Shown here: positions 6,866-63,382 of the stretch, in pieces
Numbering within the stretch: position 1 is the stretch's first letter
Layout of the letters: every line of letters begins with the position of its first letter
DNA from: an uncultured Gammaproteobacteria bacterium
Lineage (GTDB): Bacteria > Patescibacteriota > Patescibacteriia > UBA9934
Reading direction: 5' to 3'
Assembly (NCBI GenBank): GCA_964414795.1
Contig: CAYPWV010000005.1
Coordinates: 4,336 to 68,335, forward strand
Length of the DNA: 64,000 nt
Made by a program: the position numbers and the translations under genes
Notes under the pieces: generated by a model
Seen by the model: the letters and a program-made list of their open reading frames with translations, nothing else
Databases searched by the model: none
Told to the model about the DNA's origin: nothing

Positions 6866-6969
6866 AATGTTGTATAACGAAATGAATAAAGAAAATTTTT
6901 GTACGAGATGATAAAGAGTGCGAACAAAAACCGAACATAAGTGTATCCTACTTTTTCTTTTTCTTCTCC

Positions 6970-7689: not shown

Positions 7690-10062
7690 TTACTTTTTCA
7701 CGATATCTTCGTCCACATCTTCGTCGATTTCGTCGTCATGATCATTATCGCGAGACGCCATAAATGGCGTCTCTACGTCCTCATCCTGATCACCATCAGG
7801 GGGCGGAAGGTGTTCCGCCCCTGCGTCATCATTATCGTATTCTTCCATACTCGACCCATGCGGCGGCCAGGATGTCACCAGCACCTCACGGGGCTTTGCA
7901 CCATCCGAAGGACCGACAACTCCCATCTCTTCGAGAAGATCAAGGATACGCGCTGCTCGCGAATAGCCAATCTTCATGCGACGCTGTAGATACGACGTTG
8001 AAAGATGCCCTGCATCAATAGCAATTTGAATAGCCTCTTCAAGAAGCGGATCAGCATCATCTCCTCCCAAAGAAACGCCTCCACTATTGTCACCTTTTCC
8101 TCCTTCAATAATTTGATAATTATAATCCGGCGTACTTTCTTTTTTAAGAAAAGAAACGACGTTTTCAATCTCTTCTTCTGAAATAAAAGCGCCTTGAATA
8201 CGCTTGGGTTTACTCAGCTCAGCATTTGAAAGCAACATGTCACCACGACCAAGCAATTTATCCGCACCTGCAACGTCAAGAATCGTTTTCGAATCAACTT
8301 GTGAAGCAACCGCAAACGCCAAACGCGTAGGAATATTTGCCTTAATGGTTCCGGTAATAACATCCACCGACGGACGCTGCGTTGCAAGAATAAGATGGAT
8401 GCCCGCCGCACGCGCCATTTGCGCAATACGCACCACCGTTGCTTCAACATCGCGCTTGTTTTGAATCATTAAATCCGCCAACTCATCGATAATGATAATA
8501 ATGCGCGGCATCTTTTCGGAAGACTTTGCATTATAGGAATCAATATCTTTTGCATTAAACTTCGCCAAATAATCAAGACGTCGTTCCATTTCCCGCACAC
8601 CCCACTTAAGCGCATTCACCGCCTCTTCTGCTTTCACAATAGGCGGCACCAAAAGATGCGGAATACCCGCATACACGCCCAATTCTACGCGCTTCGGATC
8701 AACCATGATGAATTTCAAATCATCCGGACCGTTTTGATACAGAAGCGAAATGATCATGGTATTTAAACACACCGACTTTCCACTTCCCGTTGCACCTGCA
8801 ACGAGCATGTGCGGCGCACGCTCCACTTGCAAAAGGGGAACGCTTCCCGAAATATCACGCCCGAGCGGAACAGAATATTGCGACTTTCTCTTTTCAAAAT
8901 CTGGCGACTCAATAAGCTCACGCAGCGTAACGCGCGCCACCGTTTGGTTAGGCACTTCAACACCCACTAATGCCTTTCCTGGGATAGGCGCTTCAATACG
9001 AATAGGATGCGCAGCAAGCGCAAGAGCAAGATCGTTTTGCAAAGCAATAACCCGCGCAAGCTTCACTCCTTGTGCCGGACGAAATGCGTATTGCGTAACC
9101 GTTGGCCCCACACGCACTTCGCTCATTTCTACATCAATACCAAACTGTCGCAATGTTTTCGCGATAATTTCCTGATTGCGTGTAATATCTCCCGGCTTTG
9201 CTTCGCTCCGACGATTATCAAGAAGATCGAGTGGAATATCTACCGTGCGACGAGGTTCGCTTGAGGTAATAACCTGTTCCCCCTCCTTTTTGGCCGATTG
9301 CATCATTTGAAATACCTTTACAGCCTTTGCGGATTTTTCTTCTTCTGCGGATTCGTTGTCTCCGTCGTCATTATCCTTGTCGCGATCACGAGACGCCATG
9401 AATGGCGTCTCTACGTCTTCATCTTCGTTCTCATCTTGTTCTTTTTGGACGGATGCATTGGTCGATCCCTTTTTTGGCTTACCCTCTTCGTCGTAACGCA
9501 CAACTTTCGCAGTTGCGAGAGACTCTTTTGTGGAACGCAGCACATCAAATAACGGCGCAAGCATCACCCCGAGAGGAATATTCGTAATGCCGATAACGCC
9601 CACAACCATCGCAACAAGCGCTAAAAAGCCCGCAACTAAACCGCCAAATGCTCCCGCAACCCACGAACCAAACACAAGCCCAAACACTCCACCCGCATGA
9701 CGAAGCGCCTCATCAGTAACCGTTCGCACAAAGAGCACGTGCAAAAGACCGGTTACACCAAGCGTAATCGCCGTTGCCGACAACAACGTGCGCAGCGACA
9801 AAAAGCGACGATCGCCTAAAATCATGTCTGTTCCAATACCCAAAAGTAACAACGGAAAAACAATGCGCCCCATCCCTGCACCAGAAGCAAGGGCGTTATC
9901 AATACTATCTCCCGCAGAACCCGCAAGCCCCACCATCGCCAAAAGCATCACCACGCCAAGCGCAATAACAATCACCGCAAGAATACTAGAAAGAATCCCC
10001 CCACCTCCTTCATCAAAGGCATATTCCTCCTCTTCGTACTTTTTTGCTTTTCGCTTTGCCAT
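7690..10062 (-). CDS. ftsK: DNA translocase FtsK/SpoIIIE (790 aa)
   Basis: N-terminal TM helices, an acidic linker, an ATPase core (MLVAGATGSGKSVCLN Walker A, IIIIDELADLM Walker B) and a gamma winged helix (GYSRAARILDLLEEMGVVGP). An unusual ~60-aa acidic C-terminal extension follows the gamma domain. The linker and this tail each carry one copy of the palindromic element. Confidence 0.93.
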   Translation of the reverse strand: MAKRKAKKYEEEEYAFDEGGGGILSSILAVIVIALGVVMLLAMVGLAGSAGDSIDNALASGAGMGRIVFPLLLLGIGTDMILGDRRFLSLRTLLSATAITLGVTGLLHVLFVRTVTDEALRHAGGVFGLVFGSWVAGAFGGLVAGFLALVAMVVGVIGITNIPLGVMLAPLFDVLRSTKESLATAKVVRYDEEGKPKKGSTNASVQKEQDENEDEDVETPFMASRDRDKDNDDGDNESAEEEKSAKAVKVFQMMQSAKKEGEQVITSSEPRRTVDIPLDLLDNRRSEAKPGDITRNQEIIAKTLRQFGIDVEMSEVRVGPTVTQYAFRPAQGVKLARVIALQNDLALALAAHPIRIEAPIPGKALVGVEVPNQTVARVTLRELIESPDFEKRKSQYSVPLGRDISGSVPLLQVERAPHMLVAGATGSGKSVCLNTMIISLLYQNGPDDLKFIMVDPKRVELGVYAGIPHLLVPPIVKAEEAVNALKWGVREMERRLDYLAKFNAKDIDSYNAKSSEKMPRIIIIIDELADLMIQNKRDVEATVVRIAQMARAAGIHLILATQRPSVDVITGTIKANIPTRLAFAVASQVDSKTILDVAGADKLLGRGDMLLSNAELSKPKRIQGAFISEEEIENVVSFLKKESTPDYNYQIIEGGKGDNSGGVSLGGDDADPLLEEAIQIAIDAGHLSTSYLQRRMKIGYSRAARILDLLEEMGVVGPSDGAKPREVLVTSWPPHGSSMEEYDNDDAGAEHLPPPDGDQDEDVETPFMASRDNDHDDEIDEDVDEDIVKK
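7752..7776. repeat. Palindromic element copy A (GAGACGCCAT-aa-ATGGCGTCTC plus TAC), in-frame in the ftsK C-terminal tail encoding DEDVETPFMASRDND
   Basis: Perfect 10+2+10 palindrome read directly. The 25-nt core is shared with the copies at 9390, 28145 and 35041. Confidence 0.8.
9390..9414. repeat. Palindromic element copy B (GAGACGCCAT-ga-ATGGCGTCTC plus TAC), in-frame in the ftsK linker encoding EDVETPFMASRDRDK
   Basis: Same palindrome as copy A. It lies in the acidic linker between the TM region and the motor domain. Confidence 0.8.
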
Positions 10063-10112: not shown

Positions 10113-13100
10113 TTAAGCGTAGACCGGTTCAAACTCCTTATAGACACGCACGGTCTCAAAGTAAATGAACTCGATAAGACGCTCAGTTTGTTTTTCTTGA
10201 AGAATGCCTCGTTGAATCAACATCAAACGAACATTCTGACGAATACGAGCTTTAATGGTTTCGTTATTTGTCCAATCGATTGCGAGGTCTCTTCGAATAC
10301 GTTTTGTGAGATCTTTTACGAATTCTTTAATATCAATCCCGGTATCTTTAAGGTCGGGATTCTTTTCTAGCGAATCGTAGAATGCGATTTCTTCAGGGGA
10401 CAGTCCAAGTGCCTGACTTTCTTCATCGAGCTTTTTGATTTCTCCAGCGATCTCAAGAAGACGTTTGATGATTTCCGCCGAGCTAATCACGTTGTTCTCG
10501 TATTTTTCAATGAGATCGGAAAGCAAAGTAAGCATCGTCTCATAGCGCGCCTTGTTCATTCGCATTCGAGTAACAATTTCCTTATCCAGTAATTTGCGAA
10601 CGGTATCAACGGCAAGGTTTTTGTACTCAGATTTGCGAATTTCTTCGGCAAACTTCTCATCGAAAATAGAGATACTCTTCGATTCGTTTGCAACAGCAAA
10701 TAAATCAATGACTTCTTCGGCCTGAACGGCATCATGAAGCAGCGAACGAATTGCACTTTCCGTTTCTTCAGGGAAAACTGCCTTTGGAATAACCGTTTGC
10801 TTCGCGATTCCTTCGCGAACCGCTTGAAAGAATTGCACATCACCAGCAATCTTCATGGCTGGTTCGCTTGGCATGACCAATGCATGTAACTTCGACAATT
10901 TTCCAACGGTACCGATGTACTGCATCTTTTGATCGTCGGAAAGAATTCCGTTCTTTGAAATTACCGCGTTAATACAAGACTGCAACAACCGAGACAATTC
11001 CGTACCCTTCAGTTTTTTCCAATCCGAATATGTGATGCTATCCAGAAACGCGATACTTTGTTTATGTAGCGCATTCATTTCTGAGATAATCTCATCAAGA
11101 GGAATCATCGCCTCTTTTTGAGTTCCGGAATCATATACTGCCAACGCTTTTTTGAGGTTGTCTGCGATACCGATGTAATCAACAATAAGTCCACCCGGTT
11201 TATCCTTAAACACCCGGTTGACACGGGCGATTGCCTGCATGAGTCCGTGGTTTTTAAGCGGCTTATCAAGATACATGGTGTGGAGGCACGGGACATCAAA
11301 ACCCGTTAGCCACATATCGCAAACAATCGCGATCTTGAGCGGATCGTTTATTTTCTTGAATCTTTTTTCCAGCTTCTTTACGTCACGCTCGGTTTGAATA
11401 TCTGACACATATTCATCGCTATCAGATATAACTACCGCGCATTCAGGGGCATTAGGTATCTTTTGAATCTCTTTGTACATTGCAACTGCGATTCTTCGAC
11501 TCATTGTCACGATCATCGCCTTTCCTTCAATAGGGCGATTCGTGAAGTGACGAACAACATCTTTTGCAACTTCCTCTATACGACTCTGCGCTCCAACAAT
11601 CTCTTCAAGTACTGCCCACTCTTTACGAGCTTTTGTTTTCTCATCAACGATAATTTCCCCAAGTAAGCTATCGAATTTTGAATCGATAAACTTATCCGCC
11701 ATGTGCAGTGGCACAAGACGCCCCTCGTAATAAATAGGAACCGTTGCACCGTCCCGTACCGCCTTACCAATGCGATACTCACTTACTATTGGCCCGAACA
11801 CCCTTACCGTGTCCTTATCGTCATTCGAGATAGGAGTTCCTGTAACGCCTAAAAAGCTCGCGTTTGGCAAAGCCTGTCGTACACTCCCAGCAAGACCACT
11901 ATATTGAGTACGGTGGGCTTCATCAGCAAGTACAATCACGTTCTCGCGATCCGTTAATACCGCATTCGCGTCTGGATCTTCCTTAAACTTTTGGATCGTA
12001 GTGAAAATAAGTTCGCTCTGTAAATGTCCGAGTCGATTCCTTAGGTCTGCGATACTCAACGCTCGTTTTGCAAGCGTTCCATATCCTGTCCGTTTAAACG
12101 TCTTAAAAAGCTGATCATCCAAATCTTCGCGATCGGTAAGAAAGACGTAGGCCGGGCCTTTCAATGCATCGATGCGATTGGTTTTGTTAACGTAGAAAAC
12201 CATGGAAAGTGATTTTCCGGATCCTTGCGTGTGCCAGAAAACACCGATCTTGTGATCCTGTTCGCCTCCCACGGCGCGTATCGTGCTTTCAACGGTCTCA
12301 TTGACTCCGTAATACTGATGATACAGACACATTTTCTTCGTGTAGGTAACTGCGTCTCCATCTCCATCTGCCTCGAAGACGATAAAGTTCCGAAGCACGT
12401 CCAAGAAACGATGCTTTTCGAATAAGCCAATTGCGAGTACTTCAAGTTGACTCGCATCTTTTGGCGCATCATCATCCGTCTTTACCCCTTTCCATGCCCC
12501 ATAACGCTCCCAGGAAGAGGAAATCGTTCCATGCTTCGCCGTATGAAGATCAGAAAGTCCGATAACTTGGTTATACAAGAAGAGCTTTGGAATCTCTTTT
12601 TTGTACAATTCGATATCTCGATACGCTTCGCCGATAGAAGCAGTATCACGCACTGCGCTTTTTAGCTCGAATACCGACAACGGCAATCCATTGATAAACA
12701 CCACTACATCAGGACGACGAAGAGAATCCGCTCCCTGTACAGTGAATTGATTTACAACGAGAAATTCATTTGCATCTGCATTCTCATAATCAATAAGTTT
12801 CACTAACTCGGCATTCTCGTTTCCATCAGTTCGCCAAGAATGCTTTTTTCCATCCGTAATCCAGGAAAACATTTCCTTATTACCAAGAACCAGATCCGCA
12901 TGATTATATTCCGCAATATCATCTGCAACTTCCTCGGCCTGCTCTGAAGGCAACTGCGGATTAAGGCGTCGAATAGCCCCAACCAACCGATCCTTCAATA
13001 CAACAGTTCGAAAATCGCCACGCTCAGCTTTTTGCTGACCGGGGTTAATGTCGGGGCCGTATACATATTCATAGCCCTGACCCTTGAGCCAATCTATAAG

Positions 13101-13163
13101 GGATTGCTCGGTTAAGTTTTGTTCGTTGAGAGAGTTCATAGATTGAATTCGGGATATCCACAT
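10113..13163 (-). CDS. hsdR: Type I restriction enzyme R subunit (1016 aa)
   Basis: N-terminal HsdR_N/nuclease region, SF2 helicase motifs (TQGSGKSLSMVF Walker A, VLADEAHRTQ DEAH box, GFDVPCL), and the typical C-terminal helical domain. Confidence 0.93.
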   Translation of the reverse strand: MWISRIQSMNSLNEQNLTEQSLIDWLKGQGYEYVYGPDINPGQQKAERGDFRTVVLKDRLVGAIRRLNPQLPSEQAEEVADDIAEYNHADLVLGNKEMFSWITDGKKHSWRTDGNENAELVKLIDYENADANEFLVVNQFTVQGADSLRRPDVVVFINGLPLSVFELKSAVRDTASIGEAYRDIELYKKEIPKLFLYNQVIGLSDLHTAKHGTISSSWERYGAWKGVKTDDDAPKDASQLEVLAIGLFEKHRFLDVLRNFIVFEADGDGDAVTYTKKMCLYHQYYGVNETVESTIRAVGGEQDHKIGVFWHTQGSGKSLSMVFYVNKTNRIDALKGPAYVFLTDREDLDDQLFKTFKRTGYGTLAKRALSIADLRNRLGHLQSELIFTTIQKFKEDPDANAVLTDRENVIVLADEAHRTQYSGLAGSVRQALPNASFLGVTGTPISNDDKDTVRVFGPIVSEYRIGKAVRDGATVPIYYEGRLVPLHMADKFIDSKFDSLLGEIIVDEKTKARKEWAVLEEIVGAQSRIEEVAKDVVRHFTNRPIEGKAMIVTMSRRIAVAMYKEIQKIPNAPECAVVISDSDEYVSDIQTERDVKKLEKRFKKINDPLKIAIVCDMWLTGFDVPCLHTMYLDKPLKNHGLMQAIARVNRVFKDKPGGLIVDYIGIADNLKKALAVYDSGTQKEAMIPLDEIISEMNALHKQSIAFLDSITYSDWKKLKGTELSRLLQSCINAVISKNGILSDDQKMQYIGTVGKLSKLHALVMPSEPAMKIAGDVQFFQAVREGIAKQTVIPKAVFPEETESAIRSLLHDAVQAEEVIDLFAVANESKSISIFDEKFAEEIRKSEYKNLAVDTVRKLLDKEIVTRMRMNKARYETMLTLLSDLIEKYENNVISSAEIIKRLLEIAGEIKKLDEESQALGLSPEEIAFYDSLEKNPDLKDTGIDIKEFVKDLTKRIRRDLAIDWTNNETIKARIRQNVRLMLIQRGILQEKQTERLIEFIYFETVRVYKEFEPVYA

Positions 13164-13261
13164 CTCCTTGATTTTTAGCCCTACTTAAGGTAGTTTTAAG
13201 GTAAAGGTTCCAACCCTCCGATACGAGCCCCTGGGCTCTTCCGAAAGGATAGGGGGGTTGG

Positions 13262-13987
13262 TCATTTTTTATCTACATATTTGTAAAATTCAGTTGTTCC
13301 TGATTTAAAAATTTCAAAGTGATTTTTAATGTGTGCCTTAATAATTTCGTAAGGCCGAATCTCATTCCTCTCATTTTTAATCGAAACTGCCCAACAGCAA
13401 TAATCAGCAAGTTGACAATTCAAATCAGAATTCGACGAGTGAGAAAAAATCTCAAATGGTACGGGGGGAAATGCTTCTTTCAAAAAATGTTTTAGTGTTT
13501 GCAGAACAATCTTTTTCTTGTCGCCAGTATAGAGAGAGCCCAGAACGACAACAATTTTATCAACTTTTTCGCGCTTTCCCTCAAATAAGTATTTCAACAA
13601 ACACTCACAACATTTCTTATAAAGACCGAATCCTGTTACTCGTTCAATTAATTTTTTTCGTTTATAATAGTTTTTTTTATATAAAGTTGGGTTGGCTTTA
13701 TTTTTTTGAGCTATCACTGAATGCACTTCAAAAGTTCCATTGAGTTGTTCGAACAAACGAAACACTCGATTTCTCACATCTTGTGAATCCTCGGTTGCGT
13801 GAAAAGATTCTTGATCCAAGCCTTGTACAAGTAATCGATAACGCAAGCGCAATAACTCTTCTCGCTTTATCACGGGATCAAAAGTGACAAAACCCGTAAG
13901 AACAAAAAACTTTGTCCCCTTTGGGGAGAAATCAAAATTTCCTGACTCATCCAAAAACACGAAAATTGTCTTTTGTGTGGACTCCAT
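13262..13987 (-). CDS. DUF3800 family protein (241 aa), embedded between hsdS and hsdR
   Basis: Its N-terminus, IFVFLDESGNFDF, is the [FY]xDESG signature I associate with DUF3800. A paralog lies at 16518-17171. The region is AT-rich relative to its neighbours. Confidence 0.7.
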   Translation of the reverse strand: MESTQKTIFVFLDESGNFDFSPKGTKFFVLTGFVTFDPVIKREELLRLRYRLLVQGLDQESFHATEDSQDVRNRVFRLFEQLNGTFEVHSVIAQKNKANPTLYKKNYYKRKKLIERVTGFGLYKKCCECLLKYLFEGKREKVDKIVVVLGSLYTGDKKKIVLQTLKHFLKEAFPPVPFEIFSHSSNSDLNCQLADYCCWAVSIKNERNEIRPYEIIKAHIKNHFEIFKSGTTEFYKYVDKK

Positions 13988-13991
13988 AGAA

Positions 13992-15143
13992 CTAAATCAA
14001 CTTTACTGATAACAAATCTCTTGATTGTTCCAAAAGCTCGACTTCTTTAATTAACCGTTTTATTTCTTCAAACAACGAAGCAACTCTTTTATGAAATAGG
14101 TTAATTATTGCACCGGTGGGTTCTAATACTTTGATATTTGAGAATATATTAGTATTCACATTCAACGTCGTTGATCCACCTGAACCGATAGCTTGTAAGT
14201 CACTCTTTTTACTTACTAAACTGAAGTACAGAAATTCCAGCAGACTCTTACCATTCGGGATGACGGTATTTATCTGTTGATTCGTCTGTGAGTCTTTCGT
14301 TGTAATTGAAACCAATCCAACGGTTGCAATACAACTCACACAAATCGATCCTTCTGGCACAAGTTTATTTTTTTGAGTACTGGCACCTGCTTCTGTGAGG
14401 CTGTCTTCAGTTTTAATGATAAATACCTGCCCATGCATGTCAGGAATTTTTATAAAAAATATATCACCACCAAAATAGCTTGGTTCAGACTTTGAAGGAG
14501 TTTTTCCACAAACTACATTTCCAAAATCACTGACTTTTCCAACTCGCCACCCCTCCGGAATCTCCCCCATCTCACTCTCAACCAATCCGACCTTCTCATG
14601 ACCAGGAAAGTTAAACTTCACAAACCACTCGTCAAAAATGGCTTGTGCAATTGCTTCAAGATTTTTGATAATGGAGTTGTTGTTTTGTATTTTTTCATCG
14701 TAAGAGCTCAAAATTGCCGCAATCTTTTTTTGATACTGGACATTGGGAATTTTTACTTGCATCCCGTGTATGTGATTACGGTTTAGGGTAGGAACTCCCG
14801 TCCCAGAATTGAATTTTTCAAAATCAAATGACGACAAAAAATAATAACAAAACTTTGGATCATTACCGTGAAAATCACTGACGTACAAGGTCGTGTTATG
14901 CGGCCAATAATCCTCCTCCACGTAAAAGATGCCCCCCAACGATCCACTTCGCCCTGTAAATACACCGGGTCCTCTAACCTTGAACTCATTGTGAAATTCT
15001 CTTCGACCATTCGAGAAGACAACCGGGTATTCACCTTTTTTAATCTCCGTCAGAGGCAGATCATAACCTCGATGAAAGGTGATCACTTCGCCAAGAGTTG
15101 TTTCTTTTCTCTCCTTTTTTATTTGTTCCAAAAATTTGTCCAT
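13992..15143 (-). CDS. hsdS: Type I restriction-modification specificity subunit
   Basis: Two target-recognition domains separated by and ending in conserved coiled-coil spacer regions (LEAIAQAIFDEWFVKF...; C-terminal LFEEIKRLIKEVELLEQSRDLL). It starts 5 nt after the stop of the upstream coiled-coil gene. Confidence 0.9.
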   Translation of the reverse strand: MDKFLEQIKKERKETTLGEVITFHRGYDLPLTEIKKGEYPVVFSNGRREFHNEFKVRGPGVFTGRSGSLGGIFYVEEDYWPHNTTLYVSDFHGNDPKFCYYFLSSFDFEKFNSGTGVPTLNRNHIHGMQVKIPNVQYQKKIAAILSSYDEKIQNNNSIIKNLEAIAQAIFDEWFVKFNFPGHEKVGLVESEMGEIPEGWRVGKVSDFGNVVCGKTPSKSEPSYFGGDIFFIKIPDMHGQVFIIKTEDSLTEAGASTQKNKLVPEGSICVSCIATVGLVSITTKDSQTNQQINTVIPNGKSLLEFLYFSLVSKKSDLQAIGSGGSTTLNVNTNIFSNIKVLEPTGAIINLFHKRVASLFEEIKRLIKEVELLEQSRDLLSVKLI

Positions 15144-15145
15144 AT

Positions 15146-16318
15146 TTATTCTTCTTCTGGCACCGGCAATTCCAACGCCTCAATCTTTTGCAACTGAACA
15201 ACTCCGCTAATATCCCCATAAATACCTATCGTATTTTTAATAACTTTTTGAATCTGTTTTTCTCGCTCCGTCCAAATCTTTTCATAAGCAAGACGCTCCT
15301 TTTGTAAAGAAATATTCATACCTTGAAACGCTTCGACAATCGCCTCAATGCGCTGACGGAATTCAACTCCTGAAAGATAGGAATACATAACTTCCATCTT
15401 TTCATTCTTGCCAACCGAACTGAACTTTTCACGAGCTACCGAAAGAAGTTCTTGCCGAAGAAGTGTGGCAACAGAAACGGCCAATTTTATATCGCAAACC
15501 CATACGCCATCTCGATCAGAGATTGCGTCTGCGCCCGTTGGAAGAACGGACGAGACGATAACCGCGAGATCCGCTTTTACCGTTCGTTGATCGTCCTTAA
15601 GTTTTTGAATCCAGCCTTCAGTCCAAACTTTTGTCTTTTTAGACTCCCAAATAATCTTTCCGCACTCAATACCATTCTTATTTTTAACAATCTGAATTAC
15701 ATCAGCTCCGTTAACTCCTTTGGGGACAAGGATGATATCGTCGTAAATAAATTCACTCTTGAGCGTTTCCTCAAGAATCATTTCTTGAACTTCGCCCTGC
15801 GTCTGCTGCGACCCTTGTTCTAACTTTCTAGCCAACTCATCTTTCGCTTTTGTGGCATCGGAGAGCTGCTTGTTTAACTGATCAATCTTAGCTTGCTGAG
15901 CCTCTGTGGCTCGCTTCGATGCGTCTTCTTCGATCTTCTTTCGCTCTTCATCCATCTGACGCTGTTTCTCTAGCTCAAAGCGGTCTTTCTCTTCTTTTAA
16001 CTGCACAGCCTGACGACGAAGTTCAAGCTCTTTTTCTCCTGACTCCTTAAGCTTTTGCTCCTTGTCCTTAAGTTGCTCCTCTAAAAACTTGCGCTCTGCT
16101 TCACCTTCTTTTGCTACGTCGGCTTTTACTTTTTTCGTAAGGTCAGCAGATAGTGCATCCAACTTCTTTGTATTCTCCCTTTCGAGGGATGCCTTAAGAA
16201 CAGCTTCTTTTTCTTCAAAGTCTTTCTTTAGTTTACTCTCAATCTGGTGCGTCAAAACATCATCGATAGAAATCGACTCATGACAGTTTGGACAGATAAT
16301 TTCGTTTGTTTTTGACAT
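15146..16318 (-). CDS. Zinc-ribbon / long coiled-coil / C-terminal PD-(D/E)xK-like protein (DUF2130-like, 390 aa)
   Basis: N-terminal CPNCHESISIDD zinc ribbon. About 170 aa of E/K-rich heptad coiled coil. C-terminal domain with a candidate nuclease motif (GADVIQIV...GKIIWESKKTK reads as D...ExK). It sits between a DUF3800 gene and hsdS. Confidence 0.6.
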   Translation of the reverse strand: MSKTNEIICPNCHESISIDDVLTHQIESKLKKDFEEKEAVLKASLERENTKKLDALSADLTKKVKADVAKEGEAERKFLEEQLKDKEQKLKESGEKELELRRQAVQLKEEKDRFELEKQRQMDEERKKIEEDASKRATEAQQAKIDQLNKQLSDATKAKDELARKLEQGSQQTQGEVQEMILEETLKSEFIYDDIILVPKGVNGADVIQIVKNKNGIECGKIIWESKKTKVWTEGWIQKLKDDQRTVKADLAVIVSSVLPTGADAISDRDGVWVCDIKLAVSVATLLRQELLSVAREKFSSVGKNEKMEVMYSYLSGVEFRQRIEAIVEAFQGMNISLQKERLAYEKIWTEREKQIQKVIKNTIGIYGDISGVVQLQKIEALELPVPEEE

Positions 16319-16517
16319 ATGGGGATAGATTGACTTTTTGTTCAGATTCTGGTATATTCTTTAGTAGAGGCATGCAATAATATCTTATCTGATGCTTCGG
16401 CGTTCCCTCGGAGTTTCTGGGGTTTCTCTCGGCAACGAGAGATGTAGCTGAAGATATTCATCACATAAGACGCTGCTTCTACCAAAGAAAGTCTGTATCA
16501 CAGGCTTTTTTTGTTTG

Positions 16518-17171
16518 TCATGTGAAAAACTCCTTCCCTTGGTCAAGAAAATTATTCTTGAGAATTTTGTAGCATTCTTCACCAAGTGGGGATTTTTCCA
16601 GATAACGATTCAAGGCTCCGGAGATCCAGTCTACAATCTGCATGTTTGCATTCGATGTAGAATCAACCATTTCCACTTGTACCACGGTTCCTGGAGGACA
16701 AAGCGTAAGAATTCGTGCTCGAATTGATTGTTCAAATTCTTTTTTCGTAACGCCATTTAAAGAGCGCTGGTCGCAAAATACATGAATCTCTTTTTCGTCA
16801 TTAGGAAAATATTGTTCGATAATTTGGGTAATAATATTGGTATAAAGTTTACCGCTCTCAATTTTTCCTTTTTTCCGAAAATTACTCGGGATATTATTTC
16901 GCAGTAAATAACCAAACCGAATACGCACGTCTAATTTTGCAATATATTTCAATGTCTTTATACGAAGATCGTCGGTGATGCCAGATTGCGACCATTTGAT
17001 CTCAGCTTGCGATCGCATCTTTCTCGGAAACCGATCACGCCACGCTCGGAAAGCTTTTGCAGTTCGACGCTGATCACCAACCGTAAAAGATCCAATCACG
17101 AAATACTCCTCATGGTTATGCTTTGTAAAATTGCCACTCTCATCCAAAAAGAGAAACATATTAGAATCCAA
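16518..17171 (-). CDS. DUF3800 family protein, second paralog (217 aa), embedded immediately downstream of hsdM
   Basis: N-terminus MFLFLDESGNFTKH carries the same DESG signature. It overlaps the hsdM stop by 11 nt. Confidence 0.7.
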   Translation of the reverse strand: MDSNMFLFLDESGNFTKHNHEEYFVIGSFTVGDQRRTAKAFRAWRDRFPRKMRSQAEIKWSQSGITDDLRIKTLKYIAKLDVRIRFGYLLRNNIPSNFRKKGKIESGKLYTNIITQIIEQYFPNDEKEIHVFCDQRSLNGVTKKEFEQSIRARILTLCPPGTVVQVEMVDSTSNANMQIVDWISGALNRYLEKSPLGEECYKILKNNFLDQGKEFFT

Positions 17172-18957
17172 GCTCTTTCAAGTTGCCCTCAATAACATTC
17201 TCTAGTTCGTGTCCGCGTTTAAAGGAAATATGCAGTTCATCGGAAAGCTTTTTCATCTTTTCCTCGAACGAGATGCCGTCATCTTCCACCTCGGAGAGTC
17301 CGACATATCGTCCTGGAGTGAGGACGTAACCGTTCTTTTGAATCTCATCTAACGTTGCCGATCGGCAATAACCAAGGATGTCCTCGTATGCACCGGCTCC
17401 ATCCTCTCCGCGCCACGCACGAACCGTCCCTGCAATCTTTTGTATATGCTCTGCGTTGAATACAACTTGCTTACGTGAAATCTGCTCGAACAATTCTCGG
17501 GCATCAATAAAAAGCGTTTCTCCTTTGCGAGAGCGGAAGCGGTCACCACCTTTATTTTTTGATAAGAACCAAAGCGATACAGGAAGCCCAACGTTGTAGA
17601 AAAGTTTAGAGGGACAGGAAATAATCACGTCAACAAAATCCGTTTCGATAAGTTTTTGTCGAAGCTCACCTTCTTTTCCAGATACTGCCAACGCACCGTT
17701 TGGCATGACAAATCCAGCGTTTCCGTTGGGCGCGAGATGATGCACAAAATGCTGTATCCACATGAAGTTGGCATTTCCCGAAGGGGGAAGGCCAAGAATG
17801 ATCCGGGGATCGTTGTCCGAAAGTTTCGAGGGTTCCCATTCACCATTGAAGGGAGGATTCGTGATAACGAAATCCGCCTGCAAATGCGGGAACATGTCGT
17901 TATAGTAAGTGTTGCCGAGTTCGATCTTTCCGGAAAGGCCTCGGATCGCAAGGTTCATCTTGGCAAGGCGAAGCGTTGTCTGGTTGCTTTCCTGACCATT
18001 AAATGAAAGTTTTGGCGCATCCTTCCCATGTTCGCGAAGATATTCAGCTATGGATACGAACATGCCACCGCTTCCACAGGCAGGATCAAAAACGCGAGCA
18101 TTCTCTCGCGGCTCAAGAACTTCTACTAAAAGTTTTACGATCGAACGCGGAGTGAAAAATTCTCCGCCACGTTTGCCCTCCGCTGAGGCAAACTGCCCAA
18201 GGAAGTACTCGTAAATGCGCCCAAGGATATCTTTTTCTCGATCAAAATCATGATTGAATGAAATGCGGGAAAAGATGTTAACCAATTCACCCAATACCGA
18301 ATGATCAAGATTTGTTTTTGTATATACGCGTGGAAGTACATTTTCAAGTTGATCAGGATTATCCTTCTCGATAAGCATCATTGCATCATCTAAAACCTTT
18401 CCCAAATCCGCGCTCATTGTCTTCGTTTGGAGATACTCCCAACGCGACCGTTCTGGAACGTAGAAAACACCTTCCGCGGTATAAAAATCTTTAGTCTCAA
18501 GAATTTGCTTACGAGCCTCCTCGTTCGAAACATAGAAATCCTCGTTCTTTGGATCGCGAGTCATTTCCGCGAGTACCTCACGACGTTTGTAGAAAGAATC
18601 CGAAATGTATTTTAAAAAGAGAAGCCCGAGAACGATGTTCTTATATTCGGAGACATCGATATTTCCACGGAGCTTATCAGCGGCTGCCCACAGTTCTTTT
18701 TCGAAGCCAAGATCATGGTGCTGACTCTTTTTTCCGACCACGCTTGCCGTCGCCTTCTTCTGCTCTTCCGTGATTCGTCCTTGAAGCTCCTCGGAAAGAG
18801 AGGCCTTGGGGATAACAAAGGTCGGTTTCGACGAATCGCCGATATTTTCAGCAATAATGTCACCTTTCTTAATTTTCTGGTGAACAGCCACACGAGAAAT
18901 CCCCAGCATCTTGGCTAGCTGGGTTGGAGTAATGAATTGGGATTTATCGATGGACAT
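17161..18957 (-). CDS. hsdM: Type I restriction-modification DNA methyltransferase (N6-adenine) with an extra N-terminal HTH domain
   Basis: HsdM_N region (ELWAAADKLRGNIDVSEYKNIVLGLLFLKYISD), the SAM motif (FDPACGSGGMF) and the catalytic VITNPPFN motif. The first ~80 aa are an additional HTH (ITPTQLAKMLGISRVAVHQKIKKGDI). Confidence 0.93.
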   Translation of the reverse strand: MSIDKSQFITPTQLAKMLGISRVAVHQKIKKGDIIAENIGDSSKPTFVIPKASLSEELQGRITEEQKKATASVVGKKSQHHDLGFEKELWAAADKLRGNIDVSEYKNIVLGLLFLKYISDSFYKRREVLAEMTRDPKNEDFYVSNEEARKQILETKDFYTAEGVFYVPERSRWEYLQTKTMSADLGKVLDDAMMLIEKDNPDQLENVLPRVYTKTNLDHSVLGELVNIFSRISFNHDFDREKDILGRIYEYFLGQFASAEGKRGGEFFTPRSIVKLLVEVLEPRENARVFDPACGSGGMFVSIAEYLREHGKDAPKLSFNGQESNQTTLRLAKMNLAIRGLSGKIELGNTYYNDMFPHLQADFVITNPPFNGEWEPSKLSDNDPRIILGLPPSGNANFMWIQHFVHHLAPNGNAGFVMPNGALAVSGKEGELRQKLIETDFVDVIISCPSKLFYNVGLPVSLWFLSKNKGGDRFRSRKGETLFIDARELFEQISRKQVVFNAEHIQKIAGTVRAWRGEDGAGAYEDILGYCRSATLDEIQKNGYVLTPGRYVGLSEVEDDGISFEEKMKKLSDELHISFKRGHELENVIEGNLKELGF

Positions 18958-35107: not shown

Positions 35108-36100
35108 TTAATAATTTCCCGCAAAAAGAACCGTGAGATTCTGTGAATACGCGCCTCCCTGTTGCGATGAACTGATCGCGAGTTTCAACGTAACATAGTC
35201 ACGTGCAAGAAAACTCACCGCAGAACGCGATGCGACAAGCTGCGGGGAGCTAGAAATCGCTGTGTCCTGTATGGCAAAATCAGAGCCCACCAGCGACGTA
35301 TCTGATGATCGAGCCCCGTATTCAGAAACACCCACCGTAACGGCTCCATCTACAACATCGGGAATTTCATCAAGTCCTGACGTTATGAGATTCGTATCTT
35401 CCATAAGATATGCGGAATAACCCGTTGAAATATCCGCAGTTGCCTCCCAGGCTATAACACCCGTTGCCATTGTTGAAGCCGTGGGATCGTTCATGGGAAG
35501 CGATGTACCGTTCGTAGTCATTTTATATACATAGTCTCCTCCCGATCCATCGATAATCGGGGAGCCGCCAGAAAATGCATCAACAGTAATAACCGATCCT
35601 AAAATAGAGGTAATCTCCCCTATCTCGGACACCTGGGATTCCCCCTCATTTTGTACAACTAAGATACGATTTCCCACAGCAAACCCGGACGCACTTGTAA
35701 CCGTAACCGTTGTACTCGTTGCCGCAGTTGCCGCCACTTGAGACGACGTATCCTGAACAAAAATCTGGAAGGTCGATACCGGATCGTAAATACCTCCACG
35801 AAAACCGCCATCAAGTGCGTAGGAATTAGACGTCATGTCTTCTGCAGAGGAACCCAAATCCACAGAAGAGCGCAAACGATAACTTGTTGAACTCTGCGTG
35901 TCAGAAGAAGCTGCAGAAAACGCATCCCATTGAACAATATAATTCGTAGAAGACATCGCCGCGAAGGCGGAAGGCGCAAAAAAGAGAACACAAAGAACAA
36001 AAGCAACAAAAAGGCTTCTTTTCACGAAAGGAAAAAATCTCTCAGCGCATTCAGAGATCATGAACGTAGTATAGAACCAAAAATATGCACAGGTGCACAT
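35108..36100 (-). CDS. Secreted Ser/Thr-rich protein (330 aa), first gene of the surface-protein operon
   Basis: Signal peptide (LFVAFVLCVLFFAPSAFA) and a Ser/Thr-rich, low-charge body. Confidence 0.65.
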   Translation of the reverse strand: MCTCAYFWFYTTFMISECAERFFPFVKRSLFVAFVLCVLFFAPSAFAAMSSTNYIVQWDAFSAASSDTQSSTSYRLRSSVDLGSSAEDMTSNSYALDGGFRGGIYDPVSTFQIFVQDTSSQVAATAATSTTVTVTSASGFAVGNRILVVQNEGESQVSEIGEITSILGSVITVDAFSGGSPIIDGSGGDYVYKMTTNGTSLPMNDPTASTMATGVIAWEATADISTGYSAYLMEDTNLITSGLDEIPDVVDGAVTVGVSEYGARSSDTSLVGSDFAIQDTAISSSPQLVASRSAVSFLARDYVTLKLAISSSQQGGAYSQNLTVLFAGNY

Positions 36101-36290
36101 CTTGGGGATAAAATTGTCAACGCAGTCTTTGACAAAAACGTTTTCCCCAAAATGCCCACAGGCTTATACACAACTTATCCACATATATGTTCCACATGAA
36201 ACTTTATCTATTTCTTAAATAATCGCTAATATAAAACAAATCTACTTGTTTTCCCCGATCTGTATTTTTGATAATAAAAAGTTATGCACA

Positions 36291-36478
36291 GCTTTTCTTA
36301 ATAAGAACCAATCTCATTTCACGTGAAACAAAGTCATCTTTCATCCTCTTTTTATCCACAGGTATGCTCACAGGAAGATCCTTCGCTTCGCTCAGGATAA
36401 CAAAAGCTCCGTTTTTACTTCATGGAATAAAAAGTTTTACATAAAGTTATTCACAGGATTCTTACATAGATATCCACA
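36291..36478. promoter_or_regulatory. Cluster of four co-oriented DnaA-box-like 9-mers (TTATGCACA, TTATCCACA, TTATTCACA, ATATCCACA) within ~190 bp of an AT-rich 500-bp non-coding region
   Basis: Three exact matches to TTATNCACA and one 1-mismatch box, read directly. The region is upstream of the surface-protein operon and next to tRNA-Arg(CCT). Confidence 0.5.
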
Positions 36479-36592
36479 ACTCATCTAAAAACAGTTCACC
36501 GAACTCTGTTACGAGGGAAATGAACATAAAAAATGATAAAACTCATCTAAAACAAAAAAATATGCTCCGTATGAAACATATTTCTTACTATT

Positions 36593-36668
36593 TGGTGTCC
36601 TCACCTGGGGTCGAACCAGGATTACAGGCTTAGGACGCCCATGTTCTATCCAATTGAACTATGAGGAC
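36593..36668 (-). tRNA. tRNA-Arg (anticodon CCT), CCA encoded
   Basis: Manual cloverleaf: acceptor GTCCTCA/TGAGGAC, D-arm GTTC..GAAC, anticodon loop GUCCUAA, T-arm CCTGG-TTCGACC-CCAGG, discriminator A plus CCA. Confidence 0.85.
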
Positions 36669-36820
36669 GGGTGTTTCACATGAATCTCACGTATCATGTC
36701 TTACATGGAACGACTTATGCACACTGTTCGGTATATGTTCGCTATTCGTGCTATACTTTTTAGGCTCGCAAAAAGAGCGCCGATTGAGTATAAATAACAC
36801 ACCTATCCCGGTCAACCATT

Positions 36821-37960
36821 ATGGATCCAATGCTCCTCCTTCTTAGCCTACTTATTCTTGCGCTCATTGGCGTTATTCTTTTTACTCACATAAAAAAGAA
36901 TTCCGCTCATTCTAGCGAAATTATCACTACGTTCGACGCACTCAAACAAGAGCTCACTGACCTTAAACGTCTTTCCACCGAGCAACGGCAAGAGCTCTAC
37001 CAATTACAAACCGATGCTCGCAAAGAACTTTCGCAACATCTCAACACCATGAACGATCAAATGGGACGAGGTCTTTCAGAATCTCATCGCTCCATGCAAA
37101 CGCAATTTTCCCAAACGTCAAAGCTCATCGAAGACGTTACACTCCGCCTCACCACCTTGGATAGCACAAACAAACAGGTACTCGACTTTTCTTCACAACT
37201 CCAAAAAATGCAAGATATCCTCAAAAATCCAAAACAAAGAGGTATTTTAGGAGAATTTTATCTCGAATCACTTCTCGGAAATACACTGCCTCCCGAATCA
37301 TTTCAAATGCAGTACACCTTTCCTGATGCAACCATTGCCGACGCTGTCGTTTTCGTAAATGAAAAAATCATACCCATCGATTCTAAGTTTACACTCGAAA
37401 ATTATAATCGTTGCGTCGAGGCTACTACCGATGAAGAACGAATTAAATTTGAAAAGCTTTTTATTCAAGATCTTAAAGGGCGCATTCAAGAAACCACAAA
37501 ATACATTCAGCCTGCACAAGGAACAACCGATTTCGCGTTCATGTTCATTCCACACGAAGCACTGTATTACGACCTCCTTACAAACAAAATTGGACTAAAT
37601 ACCGAAGAAAACAGTGAAAATATTTTACAACGCGCAGCAGGGAAGTATCGCGTCATTATTGTATCTCCTACAAATTTCTTAGCATATCTGCAAACGATTC
37701 TTCAGGCACTCAATGCCATGAAAATCGAAAAGAATGCCGGGGAAATTAAAAAACACGTTAAAGAACTGCATCGTCATTTTTCCTCTTTTGCAGATTTTCA
37801 TGAAAAAATGGGAAAAAACCTGGGAACAACAGTCAACCAATTCAACCAATCATCCGAAGAGCTTCGTAAACTCTCAAAAGACATCGTCAAAATAACCACA
37901 GGCGAAGTAGGGGATTTACTTGAAATGAAAAAAGTCCATCGTCCGGAAATGATTGAATAG
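36821..37960 (+). CDS. rmuC: DNA recombination protein RmuC
   Basis: N-terminal TM, a long coiled coil, and the conserved RmuC C-terminal domain (FAFMFIPHEALYYDLL, VIIVSPTNFLAYLQTI). Confidence 0.9.
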   Translation: MDPMLLLLSLLILALIGVILFTHIKKNSAHSSEIITTFDALKQELTDLKRLSTEQRQELYQLQTDARKELSQHLNTMNDQMGRGLSESHRSMQTQFSQTSKLIEDVTLRLTTLDSTNKQVLDFSSQLQKMQDILKNPKQRGILGEFYLESLLGNTLPPESFQMQYTFPDATIADAVVFVNEKIIPIDSKFTLENYNRCVEATTDEERIKFEKLFIQDLKGRIQETTKYIQPAQGTTDFAFMFIPHEALYYDLLTNKIGLNTEENSENILQRAAGKYRVIIVSPTNFLAYLQTILQALNAMKIEKNAGEIKKHVKELHRHFSSFADFHEKMGKNLGTTVNQFNQSSEELRKLSKDIVKITTGEVGDLLEMKKVHRPEMIE

Positions 37961-45332: not shown

Positions 45333-45812
45333 ATGAAAGGAGATGCAGTGCCGTTTATTGAAAAAATCACCTCGTGGGTGGGATCTTTTGGATCGCTCAT
45401 CATCCATACGCTTCTTTTTGCCATTATTTTATGCGTTGGCGCGCTTGGCATCCTTTCGTGGGACATCGTCCTGCTCGTCCTCACCACGGGCGTATCCCTT
45501 GAGGCAATTTACTTGGCAATTTTCATTCAAATGAGCGTCAATCAGCAGTCACAAGTCATGAAAGAAGTGGAGCAAAATGTCGACGAGATCAAAGAAGATG
45601 TTGATGAAATCCAGGAAGATGTGGGAGAGATTCAAGAAGATGTCGACGAAATTCAAAAAGATATTGATGCAATCGAAGAAGACGTTGATGAAATTCAGGA
45701 AGACGAAGCCGAGGATGACAAACGCGACAGAGAACACCAAGAAACCCTTGCCGCAATGTCCGTCAACCTGCAAAAACTGTTACAAGATATTGAAAAAATG
45801 AAAAAGAGCTAG
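45333..45812 (+). CDS. DUF1003 family membrane protein with a C-terminal tandem-repeat acidic coiled coil
   Basis: Two TM helices and the conserved LSLEAIYLAIFIQMSVNQQ block that I recognise from DUF1003 proteins. Five tandem 24-nt repeats encode (E/K)DVDEIQ. Confidence 0.75.
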   Translation: MKGDAVPFIEKITSWVGSFGSLIIHTLLFAIILCVGALGILSWDIVLLVLTTGVSLEAIYLAIFIQMSVNQQSQVMKEVEQNVDEIKEDVDEIQEDVGEIQEDVDEIQKDIDAIEEDVDEIQEDEAEDDKRDREHQETLAAMSVNLQKLLQDIEKMKKS

Positions 45813-46771
45813 CTACTCTTTTTCGATTTGTCGGAGTCGTGGAAAGATTGGTAGACACGTTTGAGTTCGCGATCAGTAATATGCGTGTACACCTGCGTTG
45901 TGGTAATCGACTCATGACCAAGCATGGTCTGCACCGCGCGAATGTCAGCGCCATTGCGCAAAAGATCGGTAGCGAAGGTGTGACGAAGCGTGTGCGGCGT
46001 AACGGACTTGGTAATTCCCGCCATCCGCGCATACCGATCAACAAGTCGCTGAATGGAACGCGAGGTAAGCGGCTTTGACGTTTCTCCCACGGTTTTGGTG
46101 CGCTGCGCTTTATCGTGTCGCACAAACATGTACAGCGAAATGCTTTGCCGCTTTTCTAAATATACCTTGATGGCATCACGCGCAGCAGGTGATAAAAAAA
46201 CGAGACGATGTTTTTTTCCTTTTCCAAGCACCGTAAATTCCTCATTCTTTAAATTAACCTGCTCAATCTTCAGTCCTGCAAGCTCAGAGACACGCAAGCC
46301 CGTAGAAAAAAGAAGTTCAAGAATCGCCTTGTCGCGATAGCCAAGAATAGTGGGATCTTTTCCAGGTTCCGCGAGAATACGTGGCAATTCTTCTTTTTCC
46401 AAAAACTCCACATGGCGAGAATCTTGCTTTGCAAGTTCAATTTTTTCTGCGGCAAGCGACTTTACGTCACGCTTTGCTAAATATTTTAAAAACGCGCGCA
46501 GAGCAATGAGATGATAGTTCTGCGTTGCCTTTCCCAGTGTTGCCGCATCTCGTCCCGATACATCGCGGTTCAAGTACAGCCGAAACTTCCGCACCATCTC
46601 GCCATTAATTTCCAGCGGGGCAGGGGACTTTGCCCAGTCGCTAAAACGCATCAAATAAAAACGATAATTCCGCACCGTTTTATCCGATCGCCCTCGTTCA
46701 ATTTCTAAATATTCAAGAAATTCCTTAATCAACGGCTCCAAATGCTTCCCCATATACACCAAGTATAGCAC
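45809..46771 (-). CDS. xerC: Tyrosine site-specific recombinase (XerC/XerD-like)
   Basis: Catalytic region R...HTLRHTFATDLLRNGADIRAVQTMLGHESITTTQVYTHI with the catalytic Tyr. The N-terminal core-binding domain is present. Confidence 0.88.
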   Translation of the reverse strand: MLYLVYMGKHLEPLIKEFLEYLEIERGRSDKTVRNYRFYLMRFSDWAKSPAPLEINGEMVRKFRLYLNRDVSGRDAATLGKATQNYHLIALRAFLKYLAKRDVKSLAAEKIELAKQDSRHVEFLEKEELPRILAEPGKDPTILGYRDKAILELLFSTGLRVSELAGLKIEQVNLKNEEFTVLGKGKKHRLVFLSPAARDAIKVYLEKRQSISLYMFVRHDKAQRTKTVGETSKPLTSRSIQRLVDRYARMAGITKSVTPHTLRHTFATDLLRNGADIRAVQTMLGHESITTTQVYTHITDRELKRVYQSFHDSDKSKKSS

Positions 46772-61796: not shown

Positions 61797-61981
61797 ATAA
61801 AAGTAAGCAGAGCATACGCCTCGATACCGCGGGTGTCAACTTCTTCGCTGAAATTCGCCAACCTTCTAAAAAAGTTATCCACACCTTATCCCTGCACAAC
61901 GTTTATTTCGCCAGTCTCTGCAGAATTGTACCCTGTGGATAAAATGGGTATTATCCTCGCAGTCGTTCATACACCCGTGGG
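61797..61981. promoter_or_regulatory. Divergent rpmH/dnaA promoter region with two convergent consensus DnaA boxes (TTATCCACA at ~61866; TGTGGATAA at ~61932)
   Basis: Boxes read directly; this is the classic dnaA autoregulatory arrangement. Confidence 0.6.
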
Positions 61982-63382
61982 GTGATTAATCTCGTGCCTA
62001 TGAATACACACGAACTTTGGCAGGCAGTACTCGCAGATCTTGAGCTTAAGCTCAGCAGAGCAGCGTTCACCTCATGGCTGGTAAATACGTTTATCGCCGA
62101 ATATCGTATGGGCGATATTGTTATTGGAACACCAAACACCGTGCATTCTTCATGGCTTGAAAAGCGTCATCATAAAGACATCATCACTTCCCTAGAAAAC
62201 GTAACCAATCAACCGGTACGCAAACTGACGTATCGTGTAGAAACAAAAAACACCGGACCTCAGCCTGTCGTACTCGAACAACAACGCAACACCGCAGCAG
62301 ATCTTGGATTTACTACTACTGCAGGCATGGAGATTCCTCCTCCCACAGGAAACATCGCCATCAATCCACAACAAACCTTCGCAACATTTGTGGTAGGAAA
62401 ACAAAACGAACTTGCACACGCCGCATCTCAAGCCGTTGCCGCACATCCCGGAGGAACGTATAATCCACTCTTTATCTACGGAGGCGTCGGATTGGGAAAA
62501 ACACACTTGCTCCATGCAATCGCAAATGAGATCAGAAGAAAATGGCAAAACGCACGTATTATGTACGTAACGTGTGAGCACTTTACCAATGACTTCATTC
62601 ACTCAATTCGCTCCGGAAAAGGAAAAGACTTTAAAGATCGCTATCGCAACGTAGATCTTCTCTTAATCGACGACATTCAGTTCATCACCGGAAAAGAAGG
62701 AACACAGGAAGAATTTTTTCACACCTTCAACGCACTTCATCAAGACAATAGACAAATTGTCATTTCCTCAGATCGTCCGCCAAAATCTATTGCAGGCTTA
62801 GAAAAACGCCTCCAATCTCGTCTAGAATGGGGGATGCTTGTCGACGTTGGCACGCCCGACCTTGAAACACGCATCGCGATTCTGGAAAGAAAGTGCGTTG
62901 AGAAACAAACGCGTCTTTCTTCAGAAATCCTTCACTATATCGCCGCAAACATTGTTTCAAATGTGCGCGAGCTTGAAGGAGCGCTCAATAAAATCATGGC
63001 GGTACACGAATTCCGCAACATGGAGCCTACGCTCGAAACGGTAAAACCTATTGTCGCAAGCTTTGAATCGGAAAATATTAAGAAAACCGTTACGCCAAAA
63101 CAAGTCATTTCTATCGTCGCCGAGTACTTCGACATTAGCACCGATGAAGTCTTGGGAAAGAGTCGCGAAAAGCGTCTAGCTTTTCCACGCCAAATCATCA
63201 TGTATCTCCTTCGGGAAGAAATGGCCTCCTCCTATCCCACCATCGGAACCGAACTTGGGGGAAGGGATCACACCACCGCCATGCACGCCCATGGAAAAAT
63301 TAAGGATTTAGTAGAAAATGGCGAAGAAAAGCTGGTAAAAGACCTGGAACTCATTCGTCAGCGCCTGTACATCGGCGCCTAG
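61982..63382 (+). CDS. dnaA: Chromosomal replication initiator DnaA
   Basis: AAA+ (NPLFIYGGVGLGKTHLLHA), box VII/sensor regions and the C-terminal DNA-binding domain (QIIMYLLREEMASSYPTIGTELGGRDHTTAMHAHGKI). Probable start is the internal MNTHELWQ at 62000. Confidence 0.97.
   Translation: MINLVPMNTHELWQAVLADLELKLSRAAFTSWLVNTFIAEYRMGDIVIGTPNTVHSSWLEKRHHKDIITSLENVTNQPVRKLTYRVETKNTGPQPVVLEQQRNTAADLGFTTTAGMEIPPPTGNIAINPQQTFATFVVGKQNELAHAASQAVAAHPGGTYNPLFIYGGVGLGKTHLLHAIANEIRRKWQNARIMYVTCEHFTNDFIHSIRSGKGKDFKDRYRNVDLLLIDDIQFITGKEGTQEEFFHTFNALHQDNRQIVISSDRPPKSIAGLEKRLQSRLEWGMLVDVGTPDLETRIAILERKCVEKQTRLSSEILHYIAANIVSNVRELEGALNKIMAVHEFRNMEPTLETVKPIVASFESENIKKTVTPKQVISIVAEYFDISTDEVLGKSREKRLAFPRQIIMYLLREEMASSYPTIGTELGGRDHTTAMHAHGKIKDLVENGEEKLVKDLELIRQRLYIGA

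Follow-up and report, generated by a model that had tools for sequence, protein, structure and literature searches.

The spacer at positions 36062-36820 of the 64-kb stretch of DNA analysed here (the window) is probably an origin-proximal centromere, made up of parS sites, that is fused to a non-initiating array of DnaA boxes. In the best reading, the host chromosome belongs to the Patescibacteria (Uhrbacteria-like) and the spacer is an origin-proximal composite cis-element. By analogy with better studied bacteria, the role of the fused array would be the buffering of DnaA, crosstalk between replication and segregation, or both. Clusters of DnaA boxes outside the origin, clusters of parS sites and the action of DnaA at a centromere are already known singly; what is new is a dense, phased array of full-consensus boxes that is interleaved with canonical parS and conserved in a clade of Patescibacteria.

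The spacer (760 bp) was flanked by the open reading frame of a signal-peptide protein (35108-36100, minus strand, likely start codon at 36061), the final gene in a series of large surface-type proteins, and by rmuC (36821-37960, plus strand). The nearest named homologues of the DnaA and RmuC proteins of the window were assigned to the "Patescibacteria group" and to "Candidatus Uhrbacteria". The spacer also harbored a tRNA gene, and when the spacer was searched with Rfam at a permissive threshold this tRNA was the only structured RNA returned. A scan of a genome collection with RmuC yielded four close loci, L001 (89% identity), L002 (82%), L003 (72%) and L004 (67%), and in all four the order of the secreted-protein operon, the spacer with tRNA-Arg, rmuC, holA and polA was retained.

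An initial reading made from the letters of the window alone (the sequence-only reading) had described four co-oriented DnaA boxes in an AT-rich, non-coding region about 25 kb from dnaA. All four were present on the plus strand (36282, 36352, 36447 and 36470), three of them perfect and the one at 36470 with one mismatch, while the start given for the cluster, 36291, lay 9 nt too far to the right and left out the first box (36282-36290). The AT-rich setting was borne out by a GC content of 33% in the non-coding segment 36062-36592 as compared with 45% window-wide, and dnaA, at 61982-63382, was indeed 25.5 kb away. The cluster is real, but its extent had been understated, as perfect boxes were also found at 36164, 36175 and 36715. 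Similarly, the view that the locus is non-random and probably functional held up, but the interleaved parS sites and the embedded tRNA gene had been overlooked. The DnaA boxes and associated features of the spacer were as follows.

36083-36091, plus strand: DnaA box ATATGCACA with a single mismatch, some 22 bp ahead of the likely start codon (36061) of the gene for the secreted protein.
36103-36111, minus strand: DnaA box TTATCCCCA, one mismatch, orientation opposed to the main array.
36114-36135, no strand assigned: inverted repeat TTGTCAACGC..TCTTTGACAA, conserved, between the divergently oriented box groups.
36141-36183, plus strand: phased array of four co-oriented boxes starting at 36141, 36152, 36164 and 36175.
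36204-36281, no strand assigned: AT-rich spacer tract with the conserved block GCTAATATAAAACAAAT at 36225-36241 and no DnaA-trios.
36282-36290, plus strand: DnaA box TTATGCACA, perfect, position kept in L001 and L002.
36352-36360, plus strand: DnaA box TTATCCACA, perfect, position conserved.
36447-36455, plus strand: DnaA box TTATTCACA, perfect, in a variable section of the spacer.
36470-36478, plus strand: DnaA box ATATCCACA, one mismatch.
36593-36668, minus strand: tRNA-Arg(CCT), inside the spacer, position shared by L001-L004.
36715-36723, plus strand: DnaA box TTATGCACA, perfect, position conserved, adjoining the rmuC operator/promoter region.

The spacer thus contained six perfect TTATNCACA boxes, all on the plus strand (36164, 36175, 36282, 36352, 36447 and 36715), and at least three boxes with one mismatch (36083 and 36470 on the plus strand, 36103 on the minus strand). 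Ten perfect boxes were counted in the whole window. The sequence-only reading had put the chance expectation at about two matches per window, in agreement with the computed value of 1.99 ± 1.46; none of 100 shuffled sequences reached ten. The Poisson probability of six perfect boxes within 560 bp was about 4e-14. Within the phased array, the boxes at 36141 and 36152 were degenerate, with two and three mismatches, respectively, and those at 36164 and 36175 were perfect. The spacing of 11, 12 and 11 bp was reproduced with identical phasing in L002 and L003. The tract that followed (36184-36281, including the first parS site) had a GC content of only 24.5%. In L001, L002 and L003, the box at 36103 had as its ortholog two minus-strand boxes with a spacing of 11 bp. 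The inverted repeat (TTGTCAACGC-N-TCTTTGACA(A), 36114-36135), which separates the leftward and rightward box groups, was also found in L001-L003 and could represent two -35 elements placed back to back or a site for a further dimeric protein.

A second motif, (A)TGTTTCACGTGAAACA(T), was interleaved with the DnaA boxes and corresponded to canonical parS, for which the published chromosomal consensus is TGTTNCACGTGAAACA (PMC7022226). The copies in the window are listed below, none with a strand assigned.

36188-36203: first parS site, TGTTCCACATGAAACT, two mismatches to TGTTNCACGTGAAACA.
36315-36330: second parS site, CATTTCACGTGAAACA, the inner 12 bp a perfect palindrome, with two mismatches at the outer edge.
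36672-36687: third parS site, TGTTTCACATGAATCT, three mismatches, adjoining the 5' end of the tRNA gene, with orthologs in L001 and L002.
36697-36712: decayed parS site, TGTCTTACATGGAACG, five mismatches by direct count, 2 bp from the box at 36715.

The 12-mer core, TTYCACRTGRAA, occurred at 36190, 36317 and 36674, and the remainder of the window contained a single match to it, with one mismatch. When sites with up to three mismatches were counted, there were three in the window, five each in L001 and L002, four in L003 and fifteen in L004, and copies with no more than one mismatch occurred in the relatives. The decayed site was orthologous to a perfect parS copy in L002 and to one with a single mismatch in L001. 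The window copies were the weakest of the five genomes, which could reflect relaxed constraint in this lineage. No parS site was found in the rest of the 64-kb window, in the flanks of the relatives' loci, or within 10 kb on either side of dnaA in the relatives, and the same scan recovered parS beside the parAB genes in non-CPR dnaA loci, which served as a positive control. The possibility that the palindrome is a general tRNA or promoter element was rejected, since neither the other two tRNA genes nor the rest of the window contained it. In L004, the fifteen sites lay within approximately 1 kb (8883-9873) at irregular intervals of 34-124 bp, some of them in longer repeated units, and thirteen were perfect copies of ATGTTTCACGTGAAACAT. 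Such a density of parS is commoner in plasmid centromeres than in chromosomes.

The two motifs were interleaved in all five genomes, with gaps between box and parS down to 1-4 bp. The last box of the phased array (36175) was separated from the first parS site by 4 bp, a gap that was kept in the window, L001 and L002, and the gaps on the rmuC side were 1-10 bp. The interleaving indicates that the locus is a composite of centromere and DnaA sites and not an orphan box cluster. Where a box lies 1-4 bp from parS, DnaA and ParB bound to the two sites would have to touch or compete. The abutting sites argue for a direct interplay, predicted from the spacing of the motifs, between DnaA and ParB rather than for mere co-residence.

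A DnaA sink of the datA or DnaA-box-cluster type, one of the roles proposed in the sequence-only reading, is plausible. A narrower version, that the locus is purely such a sink, with parS merely sharing the spacer and having no functional coupling to it, is consistent with the presence of more perfect boxes here (six) than in the whole dnaA/oriC region (three), with the conserved, origin-proximal location, and with the B. subtilis precedent, in which initiation is restrained by DnaA-box clusters that lie outside oriC (PMC3245932). We consider this version unlikely, however, because the interleaving persisted in five of five genomes despite widely varying numbers of both motifs, because the 4-bp gap was common to three genomes and gaps of 1-2 bp occurred on the rmuC side, and because the parS sites of the non-CPR control loci had no DnaA boxes within 500 bp.

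The relatives also provided a measure of selection. The DnaA-box cluster was present between the secreted-protein gene and rmuC in all four, so the loss of the cluster in related genomes that the sequence-only reading had offered as grounds for refutation was not observed. Nearly all of the perfect boxes in the L001-L004 loci (21 of 23) fell within this spacer, leaving the remainder of the 21-kb loci almost devoid of them. In a three-way alignment, five of the six perfect boxes of the window aligned with boxes in L001 and L002; the free fifth base varied in four of the five, and the eight fixed bases differed at only 2 of 40 positions. The identity of the flanking secreted protein fell to as low as 46% in L004. 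The constancy of the fixed bases next to a diverged protein is a clear signature, at the level of the sequence, of selection on the DnaA-box consensus. Neither the box cluster nor parS was found beside rmuC in more distant Patescibacteria (RmuC no more than 60% identical), so the arrangement, which was seen in one clade, may be restricted to it. Several public metagenome-assembled genomes that carry this Patescibacteria-type locus (L002, L003, L004 and L024) bore the names Candidatus Kapaibacterium, uncultured Gammaproteobacteria or Burkholderiales. The one containing L003 also holds L164, with a DnaA 86% identical to that of the window, and the labels are thus probably the result of mis-binning or misclassification.

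It could be argued that the main function of DnaA at this locus is to control transcription from the divergent promoters of the secreted-protein operon, tRNA-Arg and rmuC. The boxes at 36083 and 36103 were 20-50 bp upstream of the operon start codon, the box at 36715 adjoined a conserved operator and extended -10 element of rmuC, a promoter-like site for the tRNA was present at 36815-36787 (minus strand), and some of the B. subtilis clusters regulate neighboring genes (PMC3245932). On the other hand, promoter control does not need as many as nine or more boxes across 650 bp, four of them in a phased array, the boxes in mid-spacer are distant from all start codons, and the parS sites are left unexplained. 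A primary role in transcription is therefore distinctly improbable, while control of the adjacent genes by DnaA, also suggested in the sequence-only reading, is plausible as a side role. The boxes at both edges may modulate the flanking promoters as a possible side effect. A scan of the spacer for sigma-70 promoters gave three, compared with 2.8 expected from shuffling. The operator region of rmuC consisted of the following element.

36726-36741, plus strand: direct repeat GTTCGGTATATGTTCG (GTTC-N7-GTTC), followed by an extended -10-like sequence, TGCTATACT, at 36749-36757.

The repeat and TGCTATACT are probably the operator and promoter of rmuC and lie outside the DnaA/parS system proper. At the opposite edge of the spacer (36059-36075), a TATACT hexamer was located 6 nt upstream of the conserved ATG of the secreted-protein gene (…TATACTACGTTCATG, minus strand), which hints that its mRNA is leaderless or has a very short leader.

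The replication origin was assigned to the dnaA-dnaN region. The dnaA gene is recorded with a GTG start at 61982, and the gene order rnpA-rpmH / dnaA-dnaN is classical. Boxes were found on both sides of dnaA.

61875-61942, rpmH-dnaA spacer: two perfect, opposed DnaA boxes at 61875 (plus strand) and 61934 (minus strand).
63383-63717, plus strand: oriC, in the dnaA-dnaN spacer, with tandem boxes, DnaA-trios, an AT-rich tract and the skew minimum.

The first of these is the dnaA promoter or the upstream half of the origin region; the second confirmed the box region that had been noted beside dnaA in the sequence-only reading. The published unwinding module comprises tandem boxes followed within 16 bp by at least three DnaA-trios and an AT-rich tract (Pelliciari et al., PMC8287927). 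In the window, the tandem boxes TTATCCCAA (63622) and TCATCCACA (63631) were followed by a 3-bp spacer, GGC, four consensus DnaA-trios TTACTATTACTA (63643-63654), and then an AT-rich tract. Tandem boxes with four consensus trios were confined to the dnaA-dnaN spacer, and the module recurred in the more distant locus L167 and partly in L164. In none of the five genomes was a run of at least three consensus DnaA-trios found beside any good box of the cluster.

The GC skew of the plus strand was negative throughout the 64 kb, regardless of the strand of the genes. Values of -0.135 and -0.103 were obtained to the left and right of the cluster, respectively, and L002 and L004 gave the same pattern; in all three sequences, both the GC skew and the AT skew kept their sign across the cluster. 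The cumulative GC-skew minimum of the window was at 63962, and the curve rose thereafter in a 1.1-kb extension (L081). In L162, which has a DnaA 90% identical to that of the window and the same synteny, the dnaA-dnaN spacer marked a change in skew from about -0.10 to +0.10. The same flip was seen in L164 (DnaA 86% identical) and L166 (77%), and in these three loci the cumulative minimum was a few hundred bases from the dnaN start. The sign change was weaker in L167 (DnaA 64%), where the minimum was about 4 kb beyond the start of dnaN. A metagenome scan with DnaA returned only distant relatives (no more than 55% identity), which served as a generic check of the skew flip at dnaA. In L164 (11381-13240), dnaA and dnaN were about 1.8 kb apart with three small open reading frames between them, and the dnaN side retained the box cluster together with the trio-like element and the switch in skew, indicating that the origin core stays with dnaN and not with dnaA.

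Taken together, the skew minimum and the box-trio module place oriC at 63383-63717, which puts the cluster on the left replichore at a distance of about 27 kb. An origin search in these genomes based solely on the number of DnaA boxes would go astray, because the non-origin cluster outnumbers oriC in consensus boxes. A second, cryptic or ancestral origin at the cluster, as entertained in the sequence-only reading, would fit the divergent box groups, the conserved phasing of the four-box array and the AT-rich tract behind it, which together resemble a DnaA-oligomerisation layout, but is highly improbable and was rejected on account of the constant skew at the cluster, the minimum at dnaA-dnaN in the extended window and four relatives, and the missing DnaA-trios, the expected position of which is occupied by a parS site.

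In the favored reading, of a centromere fused to a non-initiating array, ParB dimers would nucleate on the parS palindromes and build a partition complex, and DnaA would fill at least six high-affinity boxes and form a short cooperative oligomer on the array with its 11-12-bp phasing. Binding of DnaA is expected because the box consensus is under selection and the same consensus occurs at the chromosome's own oriC, and binding of ParB because of the exact match to the 16-bp consensus conserved across bacteria. Since the cluster has neither a DnaA-trio/DUE module nor a strand-bias switch, DnaA bound there would presumably not unwind the DNA, and the array would thus be a non-initiating DnaA platform. 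It may act as a DnaA sink whose duplication follows shortly upon initiation, a role that has been proposed for the B. subtilis clusters and E. coli datA, and could also be where DnaA meets the ParB/ParA machinery, by analogy with the Caulobacter centromere.

A stronger form of this interpretation holds that the interleaving is itself the mechanism and that the spacer is a dedicated module for coupling replication to segregation. We put it forward tentatively, as a possibility that is unlikely as it stands. An origin-like DnaA-oligomerisation region would be a possible ancestor of such a module, parS having replaced the DnaA-trios. DnaA on the boxes 1-4 bp from parS might gate the loading of ParB or block its sliding and, conversely, ParB/ParA might strip or hold DnaA. 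If so, a single element of about 700 bp would give a bacterium with a reduced genome cell-cycle control over both initiation and segregation.

The composite resembles several known systems in part. In Caulobacter crescentus, DnaA boxes also lie inside an origin-proximal, ParB-binding centromere, apart from the origin. According to the account given in PMC6399470, DnaA binds to boxes in the parS region and enables the movement of the centromere (Mera, Kalogeraki & Shapiro 2014), and the same domain IV is used for the boxes in parS and for origin DNA. The locus described here differs in having 6-9 perfect full-consensus boxes, phased arrays and boxes that directly abut parS, and in being situated about 27 kb from oriC in a reduced-genome Patescibacterium.

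The origin-proximal clusters of B. subtilis also interact genetically with spo0J/soj (Okumura et al. 2012, PMC3245932). They resemble the present locus in being intergenic groups of consensus boxes near the origin, outside oriC. To our knowledge, the B. subtilis clusters are not physically interleaved with parS, whereas here both motifs are found within one 700-bp spacer. The datA and DARS loci of E. coli are similar in that they are chromosomal DnaA-box clusters, away from the origin, which adjust how much initiation-competent DnaA is available. The datA locus needs IHF and promotes the hydrolysis of DnaA-ATP, and DARS has a tight core of three boxes in opposed orientation that promotes the release of ADP. 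In the spacer, the opposed boxes, namely that at 36103 (minus strand) and the array beginning at 36141 (plus strand), had an inverted repeat of approximately 30 bp between them, and the tightly spaced boxes were all co-oriented. As far as we know, E. coli has no ParABS system.

Cis regions that tie replication to partition are also found on secondary replicons, namely cisII/cisMP of Deinococcus radiodurans and rctA/parS2 of Vibrio cholerae chromosome II, in which the binding sites for ParB and for the initiator, DnaA or RctB, overlap or adjoin (PMC7671480; PMC6399470). Those regions act as the origin or lie beside it and have non-canonical repeats, in contrast to the present locus, which is a non-origin site on the primary chromosome with canonical parS and canonical boxes.

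The genes for ParB and ParA were sought by tblastn, with B. subtilis Spo0J and Soj as queries, which gave strong matches in non-CPR loci as validation, by running a ParB HMM against all open reading frames, and by Pfam analysis of about 40 open reading frames of the window. Neither gene turned up in the 64-kb window or in the Patescibacteria loci retrieved, which covered a small part of each genome, and no parAB genes were found near dnaA in four relatives.

The Patescibacteria (CPR) account for a large share of bacterial diversity and their cell-cycle control is essentially unstudied; a literature search for parS, ParB, DnaA boxes or oriC in Patescibacteria found nothing relevant. Three conserved cis-elements are now available: a probable grip for segregation, a probable parking place for the initiator and the actual start of replication. 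If DnaA and ParB meet at adjacent sites, the spacer would be a compact natural instance of crosstalk between replication and segregation, comparable to those in Caulobacter, Bacillus and Vibrio. The locus is small enough for reconstitution in vitro with two recombinant proteins.

Several features of the window outside the DnaA/parS system were also recorded. The repeat upstream of rmuC, TGTTCGG-N4-TGTTCG (36726-36741, plus strand), had a copy upstream of recA (6921-6936, minus strand) and a third copy within the dnaA-dnaN spacer (63416-63431, plus strand). Each of the three adjoined a DnaA box (36715, 6983 and 63405/63432, respectively). GTTC-N7-GTTC repeats were found in the relatives at 194 and 3257 in L001, 9899 in L002, 9418 in L003, 9918 in L004, 11479 in L162 and 12943 in L164. 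In form, the repeat matches the LexA/SOS box of the alphaproteobacterial type, and this points to a DNA-damage regulon that includes recA, rmuC and dnaN; no LexA gene was identified.

A low-GC island (38-43%) at 10113-18957, between ftsK and efp, carried a type I restriction-modification system, consisting of hsdR (10113-13163), hsdS (13992-15143) and hsdM (17161-18957), with two DUF3800 genes and one DUF2130 gene interspersed. Further along, in the segment 45209-46771, a tyrosine recombinase of the XerC/D type (45809-46771, minus strand) was encoded beside tRNA-Arg(TCT). It was conserved (79-86%) in the same place in L002 and L004, and is therefore probably a housekeeping dimer-resolution recombinase rather than the integrase of an island.
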